From Eledone cirrhosa (lineage: Eukaryota): a DNA stretch of 64,000 nucleotides. Each line of letters starts with the position of its first letter. Position 1 is the stretch's first letter. Below are positions 11,320-63,513 of this stretch, piece by piece. The notes beneath the pieces were generated by a model, which was not told the origin of the DNA, did no database searches, and saw nothing but the letters and a program-made list of their open reading frames with translations. A program made the position numbers and the translations under genes. The DNA lies in assembly GCA_964016885.1 (NCBI GenBank), contig OZ024745.1, positions 113,770,001-113,834,000 on the forward strand, given 5' to 3'.

Positions 11320-11886
11320 ATGTGTGTGTGTGTGTGTGTGCATGTGTGTGTGTGTGTGTGTATGGGTGCAAGTGATTTTAAGTATTTATGGTTATGTATT
11401 ATATAGTATCAGTCCTACTAAAAGCTAGTATTCTTGTTCCTACCTCCTTTAGCATAAATGTCCAGTTTCGATGTTATTCATCTGAATTTGACACATCGAT
11501 TCCATTATTACTTCAAGCGAAATAAGTCCATTTTGTTCAATCTATCCCTCTTCTATTTCATATTTTGGCTTCCTTCATTATTTTCACGCATATATTTTTA
11601 ATTCTCCTTTTCTTGGAGCTTATTTTCCCCATACTTTAACCATTTCACTATCCCAGTTTTGTATTATCCTTTACATATTTGTAGCCATTAAGAAATTCGC
11701 TTCGGAAGCACGCAGTTTGGAATTCTACCCAACTGTGCAATACCTTGAGTAATTAATTTATGCTTCCAGGCTTAAAAGATCATCCCGTTTTTTACCAGAT
11801 GTAACATATCTAAAGACTATTTTACGATACTTTTAGTAATTTGGACGTTAATTATTTGGTAATATTATGTTAATATGTTAATAAAG

Positions 11887-12560
11887 GGCGGTGGATTGGC
11901 AGTATCGGTAGAGGGTCAGACACCATGCTTTCCAGCATAGTTACGTCCCTTTACGATCTGAGTTCAAATCCCGCCGAGGTTGACTTTGCCTTTCATCCTT
12001 ACGAGGTCGATAAAATAAAGTACCAGTAATGCACTGGGATAATTGATGGCCTTGTGCCAAAAGTAGAAACAATTATGTTAATATGTTAATAAGGCGGTAG
12101 ATTGGCAGTATCGGTAGAGGGTCGGACGCCATGCTTTCCAGCATAGTTACGTCCCTTTACGATCTGAGTTCAAATCCCGCCGAGGTTGACTTTGCCTTTC
12201 ATCCTTACGGGGTCGATAAAATAAAGTACCAGTAATGCACTGGTAATTGCTGGCCTTGTGCCTAAAGTATAAACAATTATGTTAATATGGTTGCGGTGGT
12301 TTATTTTGAGATATGTACATGTGTATGACTAAATATATTAAGACGCATATATGTGTGTGTATATATATATATAAGGTGGTGGATTGGCAGTATCGGTAGA
12401 GGGTCGGATGCCATGCTTTCCAGTATAGTTACGTCACTTAACGATATGAGTTCAAATCCCGCTGAGGTTGACTTTGCCTTTCATCCTTACGGGGTCGATA
12501 AAATAAAGTACCAGTAATGCACTTGGTAATTGCTGGCCTTGTGCCAATAGTAGAAACAAT
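11887..12560 (+). mobile_element. Three near-tandem copies of SINE family A
   Basis: Copies at about 11887-12072, 12093-12277 and 12374-12560, each followed by the same flank attatgttaatat. Confidence 0.9.
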
Positions 12561-13044
12561 TATGTTAATATTGTTGCAGACTTATTATCTAACCTTTAAA
12601 TTGAATACGAAAGAAAGGAGATATTATCCCTAATATAAATTACGAAATACTCTTTGATTTGTAACAATGAATTTTAACAACATATATTACAAAACACACA
12701 ATCATAAAAGATTTTAATCTGATAATCAATACATAATTTTAACTAATCTCGGGTCTCAAAATAATAGTGAGGTGGGGTTGGACATTTGCTTAAATTCTTA
12801 AAAGCGAGGGTGGTGGAATAAACGGGGGAGAGGCAACCGATAATTGTATAATGTACGTTCATAAATATGGGATTTCTTGTCATGTTCTTTTTTCTTTTGC
12901 CATAGATGTAACTTTTTCCATTTAAGCAAGGGAGGGTATTTTTCTCTACTAAATTTAGTTAAAAAATTAAAGATATTTTATTGTTTATTTAAATATTCAC
13001 TTCTTTAAAATGTTCAAATGTCAACTCTTCCGGTTATACGACAT

Positions 13045-24408: not shown

Positions 24409-24459
24409 TGTATCCAATTTGCAACAACGCAGCACGCCATTTTTCATTTATATATATAT

Positions 24460-25065
24460 GTTTCGTTTCTGGCGAGAGCTTCAGGATAGTAAAAAATCAT
24501 CTGTACTCCACCAACATGCTAAAATAGAACATAGAAATAAAAATAGAGAACATAGAAATAAAAATAGAATCTACACACAGAAAAGGCGCAATGTTATAGA
24601 CAAATCACAGAGGCAATAAACATAAATGAACTCCAACCAAAATTAAATAGAAAACATGAATGGAATAGCAACATCACAACTTACAATTAAGGTCAAAATG
24701 AAAACACACACACACATAGAACAAACAACCAACCAGTAACATGTAAATAAACAAATAAATACAGACACCTGGATGTAACACATGCGCAAACTAAGCACAC
24801 AACACACACAAAAACAAGATGGCGTAGGACAGAACAAAGGAGAGGCACAAAAACAAAGAAAAGAATCCCCAGTCACTGAAGAGGTCACAGAATGTGTGAC
24901 GAAAGAACTTTGACAATATATGAACAATCGTCTGGTTGTGGAACCAACCAACCGGAAATTTATAAATTCCTAAATTGATAAATTTAATTTATAATAAATT
25001 GAAGTGAAAGCAACTGGTGCGTGTGTTACTTATTGGCAAGATGACCCTCCCAAAGCATAACAATA
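24460..25065 (+). mobile_element. PLE remnant with HHR at 24872-24914
   Basis: SKKSSVLHQHAKIEH resembles the GIY-YIG S.L..H...H motif. HHR gtca-CTGAAGA-g.gtcac(agaatgt)gtgac-GAAA-g(aa)c-TT-tgac. TA flanks. Confidence 0.7.
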
Positions 25066-25075
25066 TATATATATG

Positions 25076-25385
25076 TGGAGACTAAAATCCAAAGAGGGCT
25101 CGATAAGGATATATCAAATATATAAGAACCCTAGAGCAAATATTTATTAAAATAACAAATTAAAGTTGAAGCAAATAATCGCTGTTTCACGCTTAACGGG
25201 ATCTTCTGAAACTAAAAAAATCAATCTGTGAACGCAGAAGTAAATATTTCGAAAAACGTTGCAACCGAAGGAAAACGGGAAGACGATACTTTGGTTCGTG
25301 AAGACGTTTTAGTTTCAGAAGATCCCGTTAAGGGTGAAAGCAGCAATTATTTGCTTAAACTTTAATATGTTATTTTAATAATTAA
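25076..25385. mobile_element. Fold-back mini-element (family G) with CAGAAGA-core HHR
   Basis: Arms about 25144-25217 and 25310-25383, left tail 25076-25143. HHR 25312-25360: gttt-CAGAAGA-t.ccc(gttaa)ggg.t-GAAA-gca...tgc-TT-aaac. Confidence 0.8.
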
Positions 25386-25389
25386 TATA

Positions 25390-25455
<66 letters not shown>

Positions 25456-25500
25456 TATGAATATATTTATATATATATATGAATATGAATATATGAATAT

Positions 25501-25529
<29 letters not shown>

Positions 25530-25537
<8 letters not shown>

Positions 25538-25887
25538 TTAGAAAATATAAGCTTTTACCGTAATTTAGACTAAAGAAATTTCTAGCCTGATAGTGGAGTT
25601 GATAACTCTCTGAGAAATGTTGCCGTATATGGCAGTCGAACCTACATCTTTGGTTATCCATACCAAAGATGTGGGTCTTTGGTCTGGATAACCAAAGATA
25701 TGGGTTCGACTCCCATGTACGGCAACACTCATCTTTTTCCATTTCTTCGAGGGTTATAAACCCCACTATCAGGCTAGAAATTTCTTTAGTCTAAATTACG
25801 TTGAAAGCTTATATTTTCTAATTTCTAATTTCAAACTCGCGCACCGTTTCAAAAACATACTTACATGTTTACGTTTATAATTTGCTT

Positions 25888-25891
<4 letters not shown>
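25530..25891. mobile_element. Fold-back element containing a tRNA 3' half (family H)
   Basis: Arms 25530-25660 and 25685-25829, right tail to 25891, TA flanks. Anticodon-like hairpin ttggt(ctggata)accaa and T-arm atggg(ttcgact)cccat at about 25700-25716. Confidence 0.75.
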
Positions 25892-25929
<38 letters not shown>

Positions 25930-26019
25930 GATTAATTTGTAAAATTATTAATCATATTGTCAGAGAAAAGTATAGGTTAACCAAAGTTTTAAAGTAAATC
26001 ATTGCTAGATCCTAAAGTC

Positions 26020-26780
26020 GGGTCTATTAATATAGAATTTAAGAATTTTCTTTAGGATATCGTACATACGTTTCGGCCAGTATAAGCCCAGGTCATGTCT
26101 AACTTAATTGTACCACCTGATGGAATCTTTTAGATCATGTCTTGGACATCAGTCAAATTTTGGACACCATGGCCCACTCTAGTGAAGAGTTATTGTTTTC
26201 AGTGACATATCCGGGTGTAGAGTTTTGTTCGGGATGTCTTGAAGAAATTTTTCCTAGAGAATGTTTGAAATTTATGAGATCTGTTTCTGTTTTAATGTAC
26301 TTTGGTATAATATTAAAGAGAGCTGGGGCGGTTGAGGTGACATAGTTGTGTCCTAATGTTATGTGTTGCGGTTTCGATTTTTGTAATGGGCGGACAGCAC
26401 GGGGACCAAGCCTTGACTTGATTTTAAAGTTGATGCCAACAACATTTGGGCAATTTTTTCAACATCATATAAATGATGTAGCGTTCAAGGCGGCGTTGGA
26501 CAGAGCAGAGTGTGAGTTTCTCTAGGCGACCACAATAAACAAGGCCTGTCATGCCATCTATCTTTTTTGTTATTGACTTCTAGAGTGCTTCTATTTTCAT
26601 CATATTTTGTTTCGTGTTGGGATACCTCAGTGGTCAGCAGTATTCCAGGTGGAGCCGGGCAAACGTAGAGTAGAGAGGGATGATGGTATCAGTTTCTCTA
26701 TCCCGGAAAGTTCTAAGAATCCAACAGCATATCACGGGGGACAAGTCAACTTTGTTGTTTACGTGAGTACTACAGCAGAA
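26020..26780 (-). mobile_element. CR1/L2-like LINE 3' fragment
   Basis: Minus-strand ILRTFRDRETDTIIPLYSTFARLHLEYC (LY...VRPHLEYC-like) and LCSVQRR motifs, with stops. Confidence 0.7.
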
Positions 26781-26908
26781 TAATTCAAGGATCAGAACTT
26801 GTCTACACAAAGGTATCTACATATGTGTTTGTACAATTATATAGGCACAATAACAAGAAGATCTGAGGGTAAAGTTGTTATAAGATTGATTCTTACCACA
26901 TATACCCC

Positions 26909-26972
<64 letters not shown>

Positions 26973-26978
<6 letters not shown>

Positions 26979-27194
26979 TAAAATAACAGATTAAAGTTTA
27001 AGCAAAGAATCGCTGCTTTCACCCTTAACGGGATCTTCAGAAGATCCCGTTAAGGGTGAAAGCAGCGATTCTTTGCTTAAACTTTAATCTGTTATTTTAA
27101 TAAATATTTGCTCTACGGTTCTTATATATTTGATATATATTTTCCTTATCGAGCCCTCTTTGGATTTTAGTCTTCAATTTTATTAGTATTACTA

Positions 27195-27195
<1 letters not shown>
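26973..27195. mobile_element. Fold-back mini-element (family G), perfect palindrome
   Basis: Arms 26973-27038 and 27040-27105 around a single base at 27039. The right tail is the reverse complement of 25076-25143. TA flanks. Confidence 0.9.
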
Positions 27196-27253
<58 letters not shown>

Positions 27254-30905: not shown

Positions 30906-31012
30906 TATAAACGAAGCTAAATTTTAAACATTTGACTTATTTATTTTATTTTATTTTATATATATATACATATATATTATTCAAAATAGTAATAAATGAA
31001 GACGTTCACAAA

Positions 31013-31217
31013 ATCAAAATATATGTTTTATTATATATATTTCGGAGGTACTGTGTTGTTTTTTCAGTACGTCCTCGTCAGATAAAATACATGAATTGAA
31101 CCTTCAAGTCAGTTGAGGTATGTCATACATCAATTCATGTATTTTATCTGACGAGGACGTACTGGAAAAACACCACAGTAGCTCCGAAATATATATAATA
31201 AAACATATATTTTGATT
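31013..31217. mobile_element. Fold-back mini-element (family I/J/K) with canonical HHRs
   Basis: Arms about 31013-31099 and 31131-31217. HHR 31142-31203: ttttat-CTGACGA-gga.gtactg...cagta.ctcc-GAAA-tatata-TA-ataaaa. Confidence 0.85.
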
Positions 31218-34053: not shown

Positions 34054-34474
34054 GATCTCATTTTCCATGTTACCACACGGTGAAGTACATCTAGTTTCGT
34101 AGATACGTTTACGAGCGAAGAAGGTGTTACTGACGTTGAGCCCATAGCAGCGACTCTGCACTAACAGCCTCTCAGTATTGTTGTTTATGCTGAACCACGC
34201 AGAATAAACCATGTCAAGCTCTGTATATTTGAGTTTTGAAGTCATCCATCACTATCTTGATGTCATATAGTGGAACGCAGTCCAAAGCATTCTACATGTG
34301 CTAATAGCATCTCTCGTTATGTTTATCTATTTTAGCCTCTGTTGGGGCATGGGTCTGTACGACTGTTACCTTCTTATATGCTCTTGTTTCATGCTCATGC
34401 AACATGATACCAACCCCTCGAATTTGACATTTTTCCTCTCCAGTGTATAGGAAGGACTGCATTATCTCAAATAG

Positions 34475-34658
34475 GGCGGTGAATTGGCAGTATCGGTAGA
34501 GGGTTGGACGCCATGCTTTCTAGCATAGTTACGTCCCTTTACAGTCTGAGTTCAAATCCCGCCGAGGTTAACTTTGCCTTTCATCCTTACGGGGTCGATA
34601 AAATAAAGTACCAGTAATGTACTGGGTAATTGCTGGTGTTGTGCCTAAAGTAGAAACA
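34475..34658 (+). mobile_element. SINE family A with 14-bp target-site duplication
   Basis: TSD attatctcaaatag at 34461-34474 and 34659-34672. Nearly identical to 58931-59121(-). Confidence 0.92.
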
Positions 34659-35203
34659 ATTATCTCAAATAGTGACACGCCCTTGGTATGTGCAATACGT
34701 TTTTCACTGATGCCCAATATGCCTATACGATGAGTGATCATCTCTTTTGAACAGTGTTCTGGCATTCTTTTAGTCTTCTTCACACTTCAGATCTGACTTG
34801 ATAGAGTCAGAGCGCCATTTCGGTTCTAGATGCAACTGTTGACACACTGTCGCTTAACAGCTTTTTTAATGAATGTTTGGAATCTGTCCGTCGTCTTTGT
34901 AACAATTTCAATTAGTGACGGTAAAGATGCTAGCCTTGCTTTCCATCCTTCCTCTCTACTCAAGCCGGTTCGGATACCAACCAGGAGTTTCGAAGTCAAT
35001 TAAGGGATTCCGTAATCCTAGATGCTCTCAGCCGAAGCCAGCTACACCTGAGACTAACGTAGGAAAGGATCATCACCCTCTGTAGTAATGACTGACGTCA
35101 TTATCCACTGTTTATCTTACTTTTAGAGTAGCAAAGATGTTCAACAAGAAGTGAAAATAAAATTCAGTGACGTCATTGCTCACAGAAGCTATGCCAATGT
35201 ATA

Positions 35204-35500: not shown

Positions 35501-35529
35501 GTCTGTGTGTGTATATATATATATATATA

Positions 35530-35577
<48 letters not shown>

Positions 35578-35582
35578 TGTGT

Positions 35583-35817
<235 letters not shown>

Positions 35818-55727: not shown

Positions 55728-55769
55728 AATTTATATATATATATCCGGGAGCTTCCAACAGAAATGGTC

Positions 55770-55925
55770 GCATTCTTTAAGGGTATGTCAATATTTATTT
55801 ATAAAACTGATCTATATTATATTTTATCTGATGAAAGCGCACCATAATTTGACTTGGTGTCTTTGAAATATGTATAATGAAATAAATATGGTTTTATAAA
55901 TATAGTTTCCATTTGTTAATATATC

Positions 55926-58685: not shown

Positions 58686-58930
58686 ATACCTTCCTGTCAA
58701 TCGATTGAACCGTTCTAAGTATATACTTTCCTTATGCATATTAACGGCTGAGCAGCCTAATTTGCATATCACGTGAGTTAGTCGGCCGGACGTACCGAAA
58801 ACGATAAATGGAAAAAATGAAATTTCATTTCTCACTCTTAGTACGGCTGATACTTAAATATAAGTATGTATACGTACATACATATATGTAGAGAGACGTA
58901 CGTATATATATATATATATATATACATAGT

Positions 58931-59121
58931 AATAATTGTTTCTACTTTACGCACAAGGCCAGCAAATACCCAGTGCATTACTGGTACTTTATTTTATCGA
59001 CCCCGTAAGGATGAAAGGCAAAGTTAACCTCGGCGGGATTTGAACTCAGACTGTAAAGGGACGTAACTATGCTAGAAAGCATGGCGTCCAACCCTCTACC
59101 GATACTGCCAATTCACTGCCC
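58931..59121 (-). mobile_element. SINE family A, young copy
   Basis: Near-identical reverse complement of 34475-34658. Confidence 0.9.
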
Positions 59122-59145
59122 TTATATAGAGTAATAATAATGAAT

Positions 59146-59285
59146 GTGAAGACTAAAATCCGAAGAGGGCTCGATAAGGATAAATATATATATATGTAAG
59201 CGTAAAGCAAATAATTCAGAAGATCCCGTTAAGGGTGAAAGCGGTGATTCTTTGCTTAAACTTTAATCTGTTATTTTAATAAATA
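59146..59285. mobile_element. Internally deleted family G element
   Basis: Tail gaagactaaaatccgaagagggctcgataagg joined to cagaagatcccgttaagggtgaaagc...ttaaac. Confidence 0.75.
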
Positions 59286-59294
59286 TGTATAAAA

Positions 59295-59387
<93 letters not shown>

Positions 59388-59473
59388 AACATATATATAT
59401 AAACATATATATAAACATATATATATATAAATATATATATATTTATATATATATATGTTTATTTATATATATA

Positions 59474-61086: not shown

Positions 61087-61157
<71 letters not shown>

Positions 61158-61160
<3 letters not shown>

Positions 61161-61560
61161 ATGATATTAATAAATGGAAACTATATTTATAAAACCATAT
61201 TTATTCTATTATATATATTTAAAGGGTGCCAAAACTTTGGTACACCCTCATCAGATAAAATACAAAGTTTGTTTCATAAATATTGACATATCCAGGAATG
61301 AGACCTTATCGGTTCAAGTTTTACCTGGATAGTAAAACTTGAATCCAGGTAAAACTTGAACCGATAAAGTCTCATTCCTGGATATGTCAATATTTATAAA
61401 ACAAACTTTGTATTTTATCTGATGAGAGCGTACCAAAGTTTTGGCATCCTTGAAATAATATATAATAGAATAAATATGGTTTTATAAATATAGTTTCCAT
61501 TTATTTAATATCATCGATATTACACTCCAGAAATCTGTCGAGTGCTTCGCATCTGTTATA
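61158..61560. mobile_element. Fold-back mini-element (family K) with HHRs
   Basis: Arms about 61158-61330 and 61343-61518, right tail. HHR 61413-61470: ttttat-CTGATGA-...-GAAA-taatata-TA-atagaa. Confidence 0.85.
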
Positions 61561-62646: not shown

Positions 62647-63078
62647 AAGTTTAAACAAGGTTCAATGAATAAATCAATGAATAAAGTTTTACAATAGATT
62701 AGAAGCACTCCACAACAATGGTTTTCCGGATTTATTAATATTAATTCAAAATATTAACAAATATAGACATTCCTGTGATCAAGTATATTTTATTATACAT
62801 ATTTCAGAGGCACTGAGCTATTTTCAACAGTACGTCCTCATCAGATTAAATAAGACGATGCTTGACATACCTTGACTATGTTGATGGCAGACATGACTGA
62901 ATTTTAACCACCAACATAGTCAAGGTATGTCAAGGTATGTCAAGGTATTTCAAGCATCATCTTATTTTATCTGATGAGGACGTACTGTTGAAAATAGTTC
63001 AGTACCTCTGAAATATGTATATTAAAATATACTTGATCACACGAATGTCTATATTTGTTAATATTTTGAATTAATATA
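62645..63078. mobile_element. Fold-back mini-element (family J) with HHRs
   Basis: Arms about 62737-62883 and 62913-63078, left tail. HHR 62965-63027: ttttat-CTGATGA-ggacgtactg...cagtacctct-GAAA-tatgta-TA. Confidence 0.85.
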
Positions 63079-63513
63079 TATATATATACATTGATAATTG
63101 CATATATTCATCTATACATACATATATGCTTCTATACATACACATATATATACATATCAAGAGATACGTATGTTCATTGTAGATATGCATTGTTGTACAG
63201 TGTTTGCGTTACGACATGGATTTTACGATACAATTAATTACGTGACATAATTAGAAATAATTAATTACAAATAATGGAAGTGGTCAGTCATGAAAAATAA
63301 AGCAATAAATAGGAAATATATATAAAGATCATACAAATGCAAATGTATATACATGCACGCACGCGCGCAAACATTAATATATAATATATATATTCATATC
63401 TAATATAAATATATATAATATATGTATATAATAAACATATTATATACGTATATTATATATTGTATATTATATATATTATATATATATATATTATATATTG
63501 TATATGTATTTAA

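Follow-up and report, generated by a model that had tools for sequence, protein, structure and literature searches.

A fold-back between two TA tracts

The window, by which we mean the whole 64-kb stretch of DNA analysed, contains at positions 25530-25891 a near-perfect hairpin with a 62-nt extension on one side. It lies between a left (TA)n tract with some TATGAA variants (25385-25529) and a right (TA)n tract (25892-25926), the putative target. The folding energy of the element is -202.4 kcal/mol, compared with about -68 kcal/mol for shuffled sequences (z = -28; 0/100 shuffles reached it). Its two arms, 25530-25665 and 25680-25829, are 82% alike with one 14-nt gap, and the tail occupies 25830-25891. 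An earlier note, made from the letters alone, had described an architecture like that of hammerhead ribozyme elements, with divergent arms, a one-sided tail and TA flanks, and had seen no hammerhead; both points hold, and a motif scan of the window found no CTGANGA..GAAA core in the element.

Aligned to the repeat unit described below, the focal copy consists of unit 79-290 plus an inverted 228-79. The main arm (unit 79-290; 25680-25891, plus strand) is 97.6% identical to the consensus of dispersed copies. The inverted, tail-less arm (25530-25665, minus strand) runs from unit 228, a second putative 3′ start site, back to unit 79 and is the more diverged, with 11 substitutions against five in the right arm and a 14-nt deletion that removes a run of five Ts (T5). 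The main arm begins with the 3′ part of a tRNA-like module (25680-25724), comprising an anticodon-like hairpin with GGA (25679-25695), a short variable loop, a T arm (25700-25716) and an acceptor-like 3′ strand to 25724, all where the earlier note had placed them. The B box and T loop lie at 25703-25713, with the equivalent of tRNA position A58 at 25709; the family's 5′ ends accumulate immediately 3′ of this base. There follow a trailer (25725-25745) complementary to the leader of full units and containing the T5 run (25734-25738), a body (25746-25829) ending at unit 228, and the tail, which lies between the two putative start sites, the main 3′ end being at unit 286-290. The earlier note's view that the arm starts with a tRNA 3′ half needs refining, as this start is a truncation: both arms are cut at unit position 79 of a parent unit that holds a whole tRNA-like gene.

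In the fold centre (25662-25683), unit 90-104 is copied a second time in sense and 90-96 is then briefly re-copied in inverted orientation; each switch falls on a 4-nt TGGT/ACCA complement. The note's partial re-duplication of the anticodon arm thus proved somewhat narrow, as the re-copied stretch covers the anticodon stem 3′ strand, the variable loop and the T stem 5′ strand, and the inverted re-copy comes in addition.

The element is single-copy within the 64-kb window, and ARAGORN called no tRNA gene there. Close by, broken C-terminal frames at 25935-26915 (minus strand) resemble the 3′ end of what we take to be a CR1/L2-type LINE. On the other side, ∼24440-25060 looks like the 3′ end of another Penelope-like element (PLE); it carries a hammerhead core at 24876, terminates in TA, and by eye its frame resembles an endonuclease-like end at another locus (L404).

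A repeat unit with an internal tRNA-like gene

A first look at the animal's own genome (3.0 Gb, G000) gave 1,842 candidates for the focal element. Non-focal copies reach 78 nt further 5′, carry an A box and are arranged head to tail, so that the full tRNA head and the multiple copies for which the earlier note proposed to search are both present. The unit of the first subfamily (A1) is 290 bp long and comprises a leader (1-49), a tRNA-like gene from position 50, the T5 run (133-137), a body and a tail of ∼60 nt (229-290). Its cloverleaf is complete, with A and B boxes. Of 15 loci examined with ARAGORN, 12 gave a tRNA call (11 Ser-GGA, one Phe-GAA), and the match to Rfam RF00005 scored 34 bits against a cut-off of 29. 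Searched as a two-unit stretch, the repeat matched no ribozyme family in Rfam at E values up to 10, and a motif scan found CTGANGA on neither strand of A1 and A2 dimers. Possible hammerhead remnants (GAAA with a palindromic AGCT in sense, CTGATAG in antisense) were inspected and not accepted.

In the sister subfamily (A2) the unit measures 271 bp; its head is the same and its tail is 35 nt long. The A and B boxes are kept in A1 and A2 despite their different length and sequence, as is the T5 run right after the tRNA. In both, the leader pairs with the trailer and lengthens the acceptor stem (-22.3 and -19.0 kcal/mol). Because of the short variable loop and the T at position 37 with a GGA anticodon, the module is not plausible as a working tRNA-Ser. 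Its D arm equals that of tRNA-Gln genes of the same genome save for one base, and the closest tRNA is Gln (49/73 identity), by a margin of two positions and among Gln, Thr and family-B look-alikes, the sequences compared. The label 'SINE' chosen in the earlier note fits poorly, since the tRNA lies inside a tandem unit that is circularly permuted.

A tail motif common to A1 and A2 gave 1,826 forward and 2,681 reverse matches in the genome, against 19 for a control; with the long array described below removed, ∼3,600 dispersed motifs are left, somewhat above the number of insertions. Dispersed A1 segments lie 2.3% from their own consensus. A 22-mer across the head-to-tail joint had 80 forward matches (control, 0). 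Assembled contigs of four public runs contain the unit, three of them with the tandem joint; depth was very low in three, and no host range was read from them.

Several other sequences were met in passing. A third, more diverged unit variant (L111:387-635) is also folded back, at a CATG site. A second tRNA-bearing family (L227, L229-L237), which has a 15-mer in common with the unit (E = 0.005), was considered as a relative and set aside because of its ∼1.75-kb size and subterminal inverted repeats. The anticodon of its internal tRNA-like gene drifts (GGC, GAC, GGT, GTC, AGC), leader/trailer pairing is visible by eye, and the element may be a DNA transposon with a tRNA on board. Seemingly genuine tRNA-Gln (∼29 motif matches) and tRNA-Thr genes form clusters at G000:C1:168.21-168.28 Mb and at L226 and L228.

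Insertions are tandem, inverted and targeted to TA repeats

Insertions were parsed in contig C1 order: 85 tail-motif-anchored A1 insertions from the first 100 of 1,249 matches listed, and 59 tail-anchored A2 insertions, of which two turned out to be A1, leaving 57. Among the A1 matches listed, 56 of 85 insertions had an inverted arm (55 on re-parse) and 29 had none; for A2 the figure was 39 of 57 (37/56 on re-parse). The inverted arm duplicates the main arm and lacks only the tail, and arm ends and centres vary. The 3′ ends cluster at 286-290 with a second site at 228/221 in A1, and at 257-261 with a second site at ∼222 in A2. A (TA)4 lay within 16 nt of 122 of 140 A1 and 82 of 93 A2 3′-type ends, compared with 9% of random flank positions. 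Multi-unit arms with seamless head-to-tail joints occur, and arms reach 738 nt in A1 and 847 nt in A2. Fold centres show a 1-6-nt overlap in about half of the simple cases, or else short inserts. The inverted structure of the focal copy is thus shared by about two thirds of the family, and (TA)n insertion is consistent. Among 42 assessable insertions, target-site duplications (TSDs) were found at two, of 13 and 9 nt: 2 of 25 A1 insertions not TA-bounded on both sides, and 0 of 17 A2 insertions.

This anatomy is that of PLEs, whose marks are partial tandems, an inverted 5′-truncated copy, a 30-40-bp tail and a (TA)n bias, according to PMC8557442. In vitro, AT-rich DNA is cut on both strands by a PLE protein and both are extended; the two start sites of the reverse transcriptase (RT) are internal to the RNA and enclose the tail, and hammerhead cleavage is not required (PMC11167929). 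Since a tRNA-bearing, hammerhead-free repeat is found within TA microsatellites, partly in tandem and paired head to head, insertion by PLE machinery is likely, a route that ordinary SINEs do not show. Three controls from the fetched DNA were scored in the same way. Of 74 copies of the ordinary tRNA SINE of the window, 5 were inverted and 12 lay at TA; for 15 copies of a hammerhead element the figures were 9 and 12, and for 15 copies of the pseudo-LTR (pLTR) of a Neptune PLE only 4 and 5. The Neptune result counts against the PLE reading. Copies of the ordinary SINE lie in the window at 656-905, 11864-12577, 34470-34663 and 58924-59146, and three A1/A2 insertions are in or beside SINE copies.

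An ordinary SINE, driven by a LINE and targeted to (TA)n, with fold-backs formed by twin priming or later repair, would account for the tRNA-derived head with A and B boxes, the variable 5′ truncation and the two TSDs. The family itself, however, lacks a simple-repeat or poly(A) tail, and sequence upstream of the tRNA is copied. No match was found to the LINE 3′ end that lies within the window. Moreover, the inverted arm repeats the main arm minus the tail only, and two thirds of insertions are inverted. The ordinary SINE of the same genome has neither inverted arms nor TA targeting to a comparable degree, and we regard LINE-driven insertion as very improbable. The focal element is a 5′-truncated head-to-head copy of a non-coding tandem unit, and we consider it highly probable that it was inserted by a PLE RT and endonuclease (EN).

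Subfamily alleles agreed within one insertion in 11 of 11 cases (5.0 expected) and in 15 of 16 (7.2 expected); the units therefore came from one template or one homogeneous source. Counting against the PLE scheme, such units still diverge at 3.4-3.8% of their sites, compared with 4.3% for units of separate insertions, and the within-insertion rate of shared variants is inflated by one locus (L074) that holds a nested A2 copy. Private variants are in places common to the tandem units of an insertion (for example two sites, 3/3 units, in L169; 3/3 in L085). Apparent variants at unit 100-112 were discarded, having arisen from misalignment where the T-arm hairpin meets fold centres.

5′ ends follow the tRNA fold

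The 5′ ends of arms were expressed as a hazard per nucleotide at risk. At A58+3 to +8 this hazard is raised 36.6-fold in A1 and 25.1-fold in A2. At A58+1 to +2 it is raised 34.9-fold in A1 (10 ends), and 5.1-fold in A2 (one end, not significant). From A58-7 to A58 itself there is one end in each subfamily and no enrichment. A smaller excess occurs in the window around tRNA +1, with five ends in A1 (6.2-fold, P = 0.0015) and six in A2 (10.4-fold, P = 3 × 10−5), that is, on 11 ends in total. Many 5′ ends sit on a CATG palindrome or an AT microhomology, which could shift their exact positions.

Because the ends pile up 3′ of A58 and at tRNA +1, they point to RT stalling on a tRNA-folded RNA template that would in part begin at +1. 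Cutting by RNase P would yield an identical +1 end. The methylated base m1A58 blocks RT and is a candidate cause of the stalling, only half supported by the sequences: the 10 ends at A58+1 to +2 in A1 have a single counterpart in A2, and misreading of A58 was not seen in the arms that pass it, of which 47/47 and 23/24 read A.

The template could instead be a circular or concatemeric RNA of the monomer, as in retrozymes, with tRNA-processing enzymes cutting at the tRNA and the PLE RT rolling round. Seamless joints, the length of the longest arms, the agreement of alleles within insertions and the private variants common to tandem units would all follow, and the unit size is within the retrozyme range of ∼170-400 nt given in PMC7229834. 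Circles have no 5′ end, however, which leaves the +1 excess unexplained; the aligned units contain no fixed scar marking a ligation point; and the fold of the monomer is little more stable than that of shuffled sequences (z = -1.7), in contrast to the extensive self-pairing described for retrozyme circles. We therefore consider a circular template unlikely, and prefer a linear transcript with a start at +1.

A 276-kb tandem array is not the source of dispersed copies

Strand-biased motif counts, followed by a DNA search, located a long array of the unit at G000:C28:19,440,624-19,716,546, with 954 matches and 936 full A1 units on one strand and without gaps. It starts 5′-truncated behind a TA tract and has an unrelated coding fragment at its other end. 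This opposite-strand fragment, which cuts the 3′ end of the array just below 19,440,624 (L187-L189), looks by eye like what we presume to be a Helitron. Within the array, neighbouring units differ by 5.8%, near-identical pairs are commoner at lags of 14 and 20 units, and the leader and trailer are the least variable parts. The tRNA part varies like the body (5.0% versus 4.8%) and so has no mark of the purifying selection expected of a functional tRNA gene. ARAGORN nevertheless called 134 Ser(GGA) genes in the array alone, and such units inflate tRNA gene counts.

Three alleles near-fixed in the array (119T in 917/936 units, 171A in 885 and 176T in 918) are rare or missing in dispersed segments (0/171, 4/∼195 and none of ∼200, respectively). 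The array, considered as a master source, is ruled out by these diagnostic alleles; it grew from one insertion and did not seed the sampled copies. It shows a retro-insertion growing into a satellite.

An array of this size, together with long inverted repeats and TA flanks, might suggest a DNA-level element: a fold-back MITE, a rolling-circle repeat akin to Helitrons, or satellite monomers that had left the array. Against this, about a third of copies are without an inverted arm, arm lengths and centres vary freely, and the ends are polar (fixed 3′, ragged 5′) with no fixed terminal inverted repeats at both ends. The 5′ ends track the tRNA fold of the sense strand, and the array, besides its missing alleles, is itself 5′-truncated behind (TA)n. 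We give a DNA-level origin almost no credence; it and the LINE-driven SINE both fit the data poorly. The sequence at 25530-25891 thus belongs to a family that is neither single-copy nor made up of TSD-flanked SINEs, MITEs or real tRNA genes, the readings against which the earlier note had set its own.

In another reading the tRNA would be passive cargo, doing no more than stall the PLE RT on templates supplied by long Pol II read-through RNAs of tandem copies. Against this, both subfamilies keep the A and B boxes, there is an excess of 5′ ends at +1, and the diagnostic alleles show that the one long array was not the source. The T5 run directly behind the tRNA does suit such cargo, as does the copying of a 49-nt leader upstream of +1; the leader/trailer pairing in both subfamilies needs one RNA holding both, and the anticodon loop is unlike that of a working tRNA. 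On balance we find passive carriage improbable, a little more so than a circular template, and retain an active start at the tRNA as the preferred reading.

A possible PLE partner

PLEs are abundant in the genome, with 10,595 first-look GIY-YIG candidates; some frames with RT + GIY-YIG are open and have, like Neptune, a CX2-5CxxC finger. Sequence likeness between the unit and PLE 3′ ends was looked for in several ways, among part of the genome's PLE families and without Naiad. Against 50 GIY-YIG loci the best blastn E value was 0.067. A profile search (nhmmer) of 1.28 Mb returned only fragments of the A1/A2 family itself, and the profile run against 54 Hydra-type loci gave one unrelated-looking match (E = 0.008). 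In pairwise shuffle tests against PLE 3′ ends, 14 of 14 gave P values of 0.23-0.94. The comparison of the tail with autonomous PLE 3′ ends that the earlier note recommended therefore came out negative for the families sampled. This result counts against a PLE scheme; the non-autonomous elements of the Chlamys clade generally do have such likeness.

Among 250 fetched loci, some overlapping, there are three (L286, L358 and L372) in which an A2 copy is joined to an element carrying a hammerhead without any intervening TA. L286 is one TA-bounded head-to-head insertion that ends on one side in the A2 tail and on the other in the tail of its partner. The partner there is a PLE 3′ end with an RT, a CxCX5C linker, an EN of GIY-YIG type at the C terminus, and CxxC and CxH motifs; Pfam recognised none of the pieces tested. 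These features are marks of the Hydra clade in PMC8557442 (section 11). The partner in L372 is a 70% relative of the one in L286; for the hammerhead-core element joined in L358, no autonomous parent was found. Such joints could also be explained by successive insertions or deletions, 0 of 54 Hydra-type loci contain A1/A2 sequence, and any resemblance of the 3′ ends is no greater than expected by chance; a Hydra-clade PLE is therefore no more than suggested as the best partner candidate. The earlier proposal of a passenger of PLE machinery is thus supported by the tandem, inverted and tailed anatomy, the (TA)n targets and, directly though thinly, the three chimeras, and not by any 3′ sequence common with the autonomous PLEs sampled.

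Hydra-type PLE 3′ ends also occur in the window itself, as hammerhead fold-backs at 62680-63085 and 30975-31217, with relatives at 61155-61520 and 55767-55900; the sequence at 62730 is 83.5% identical to the pLTR of L412, and that at 31012 is 96% identical to the L286 partner. The hammerhead-core element is abundant, forms fold-backs with TA ends, and lies at 25073-25384, 26911-27200, 35512-35736 and 59123-59432.

A proposed scheme for mobilization

From these observations a scheme can be drawn up, driven by a PLE with a Pol III start and strand transfer, towards which, taken as a whole, we lean slightly. Its observed base is the unit itself (leader, tRNA, T5, body, tail) and its partial tandem copies. 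Pol III would start at tRNA +1 of a tandem copy, and most transcripts would stop at T5, so that the T5 run directly behind the tRNA counts against a Pol III start; occasional read-through would give an RNA with a tRNA at both ends. If PLE biochemistry is a guide, the PLE protein would nick (TA)n on both strands and cDNA would start at two favoured positions within the RNA, which would thereby delimit the tail. RT may then stall on the folded tRNA, possibly at m1A58, which would give the ends observed to pile up 3′ of the T arm. Any cDNA reaching +1 could hop to the repeated tRNA copy and continue through leader and tail, producing multi-unit arms. Finally, the two cDNA ends would be joined on 1-6-nt microhomologies with short templated re-copies, as at the focal fold centre.

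If the scheme is true, its meaning is wider than one family. SINEs are taken to ride LINEs, and the short PLE passengers proposed so far have been defined by their hammerhead; a tRNA-bearing, hammerhead-free one would give PLEs a SINE counterpart of their own. The unit, a substrate of 290 nt whose two start sites are mapped and whose sequence is unlike PLE ends, would make it possible to test what the PLE RT recognizes and how tandem and inverted insertions arise. In the pile-up at the T arm, the genome would have recorded the stalling of RT at a folded tRNA. In an octopus repeat annotation, 893 of 900 recently active SINE families are unclassified (PMC13282606).

Comparison with known systems

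Canonical tRNA SINEs start at the head, have no terminator before the 3′ end, carry a simple-repeat or LINE-derived tail and are flanked by TSDs. The present family resembles them in its tRNA-like head with A and B boxes, short length, high copy number and 5′-truncated copies. It differs in that the tRNA is internal, T5 follows immediately, there is no simple-repeat tail, and insertions are mostly inverted or tandem.

Among tRNA-bearing elements, the nearest precedent in the sources covered is Sm-alpha of schistosomes, which is transcribed by Pol III and laid out in tandem. Sm-alpha and Sj-alpha are high-copy, SINE-like elements derived from tRNA-Gln-TTG and tied to the hammerhead/retrozyme group, and the A1 head is likewise closest to tRNA-Gln among the tRNAs sampled (PMC2770079). 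Sm-alpha differs in carrying a hammerhead, and inverted arms or tails are not described in the part of that text covered.

Autonomous EN+ PLEs (Hydra, Neptune, Naiad and Poseidon) share the partial tandems, the inverted 5′-truncated copy, the one-sided tail, the (TA)n targets and the internal RT starts (PMC8557442, PMC11167929), but the A1/A2 unit has no ORF, no hammerhead and, among the families sampled, no sequence in common with them. PLE tails are usually 30-40 nt in these sources; the A1 tail (60 nt) is longer and the A2 tail (35 nt) typical. The non-autonomous PLEs of the Chlamys clade (MRC1) are also non-coding, form pseudo-LTRs, are often multicopy head to tail and belong to a mostly hammerhead-free clade. 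They differ in generally having 3′ sequence in common with autonomous families and in coming from green algae, and their description mentions no tRNA (PMC8557442).

Non-LTR retrozymes, called a novel SINE-like element family in PMC7761336, are likewise non-coding units of a few hundred bases that occur as monomers, dimers and long arrays, and have been proposed as PLE passengers (PMC7229834, PMC7761336, bioRxiv 10.64898/2026.07.22.740005). Each retrozyme unit, as described there, has a type I hammerhead, whereas the A1/A2 unit has a tRNA-like gene in its place; circular RNA has been demonstrated for retrozymes, while the present family is known here from DNA. The earlier note did not know PLE passengers as a well-described class; retrozymes and MRC1 have already been put forward as such in print. 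As to a tRNA-bearing, ribozyme-free PLE passenger, a literature search found no published description, although Repbase, Dfam and supplements, which lay outside its scope, may catalogue the family. It is conceivable, though we put this forward tentatively, that PLE-dependent SINEs form a class of their own across phyla, with an internal tRNA gene in place of the hammerhead as promoter and strand-transfer repeat, and that the class in this genome rides a Hydra-clade PLE without its 3′ sequence. The A1/A2 family works like a non-LTR retrozyme or MRC1, yet it has no hammerhead and so is not a retrozyme, and its internal tRNA, its terminator and its lack of a SINE tail place it outside the canonical SINEs.
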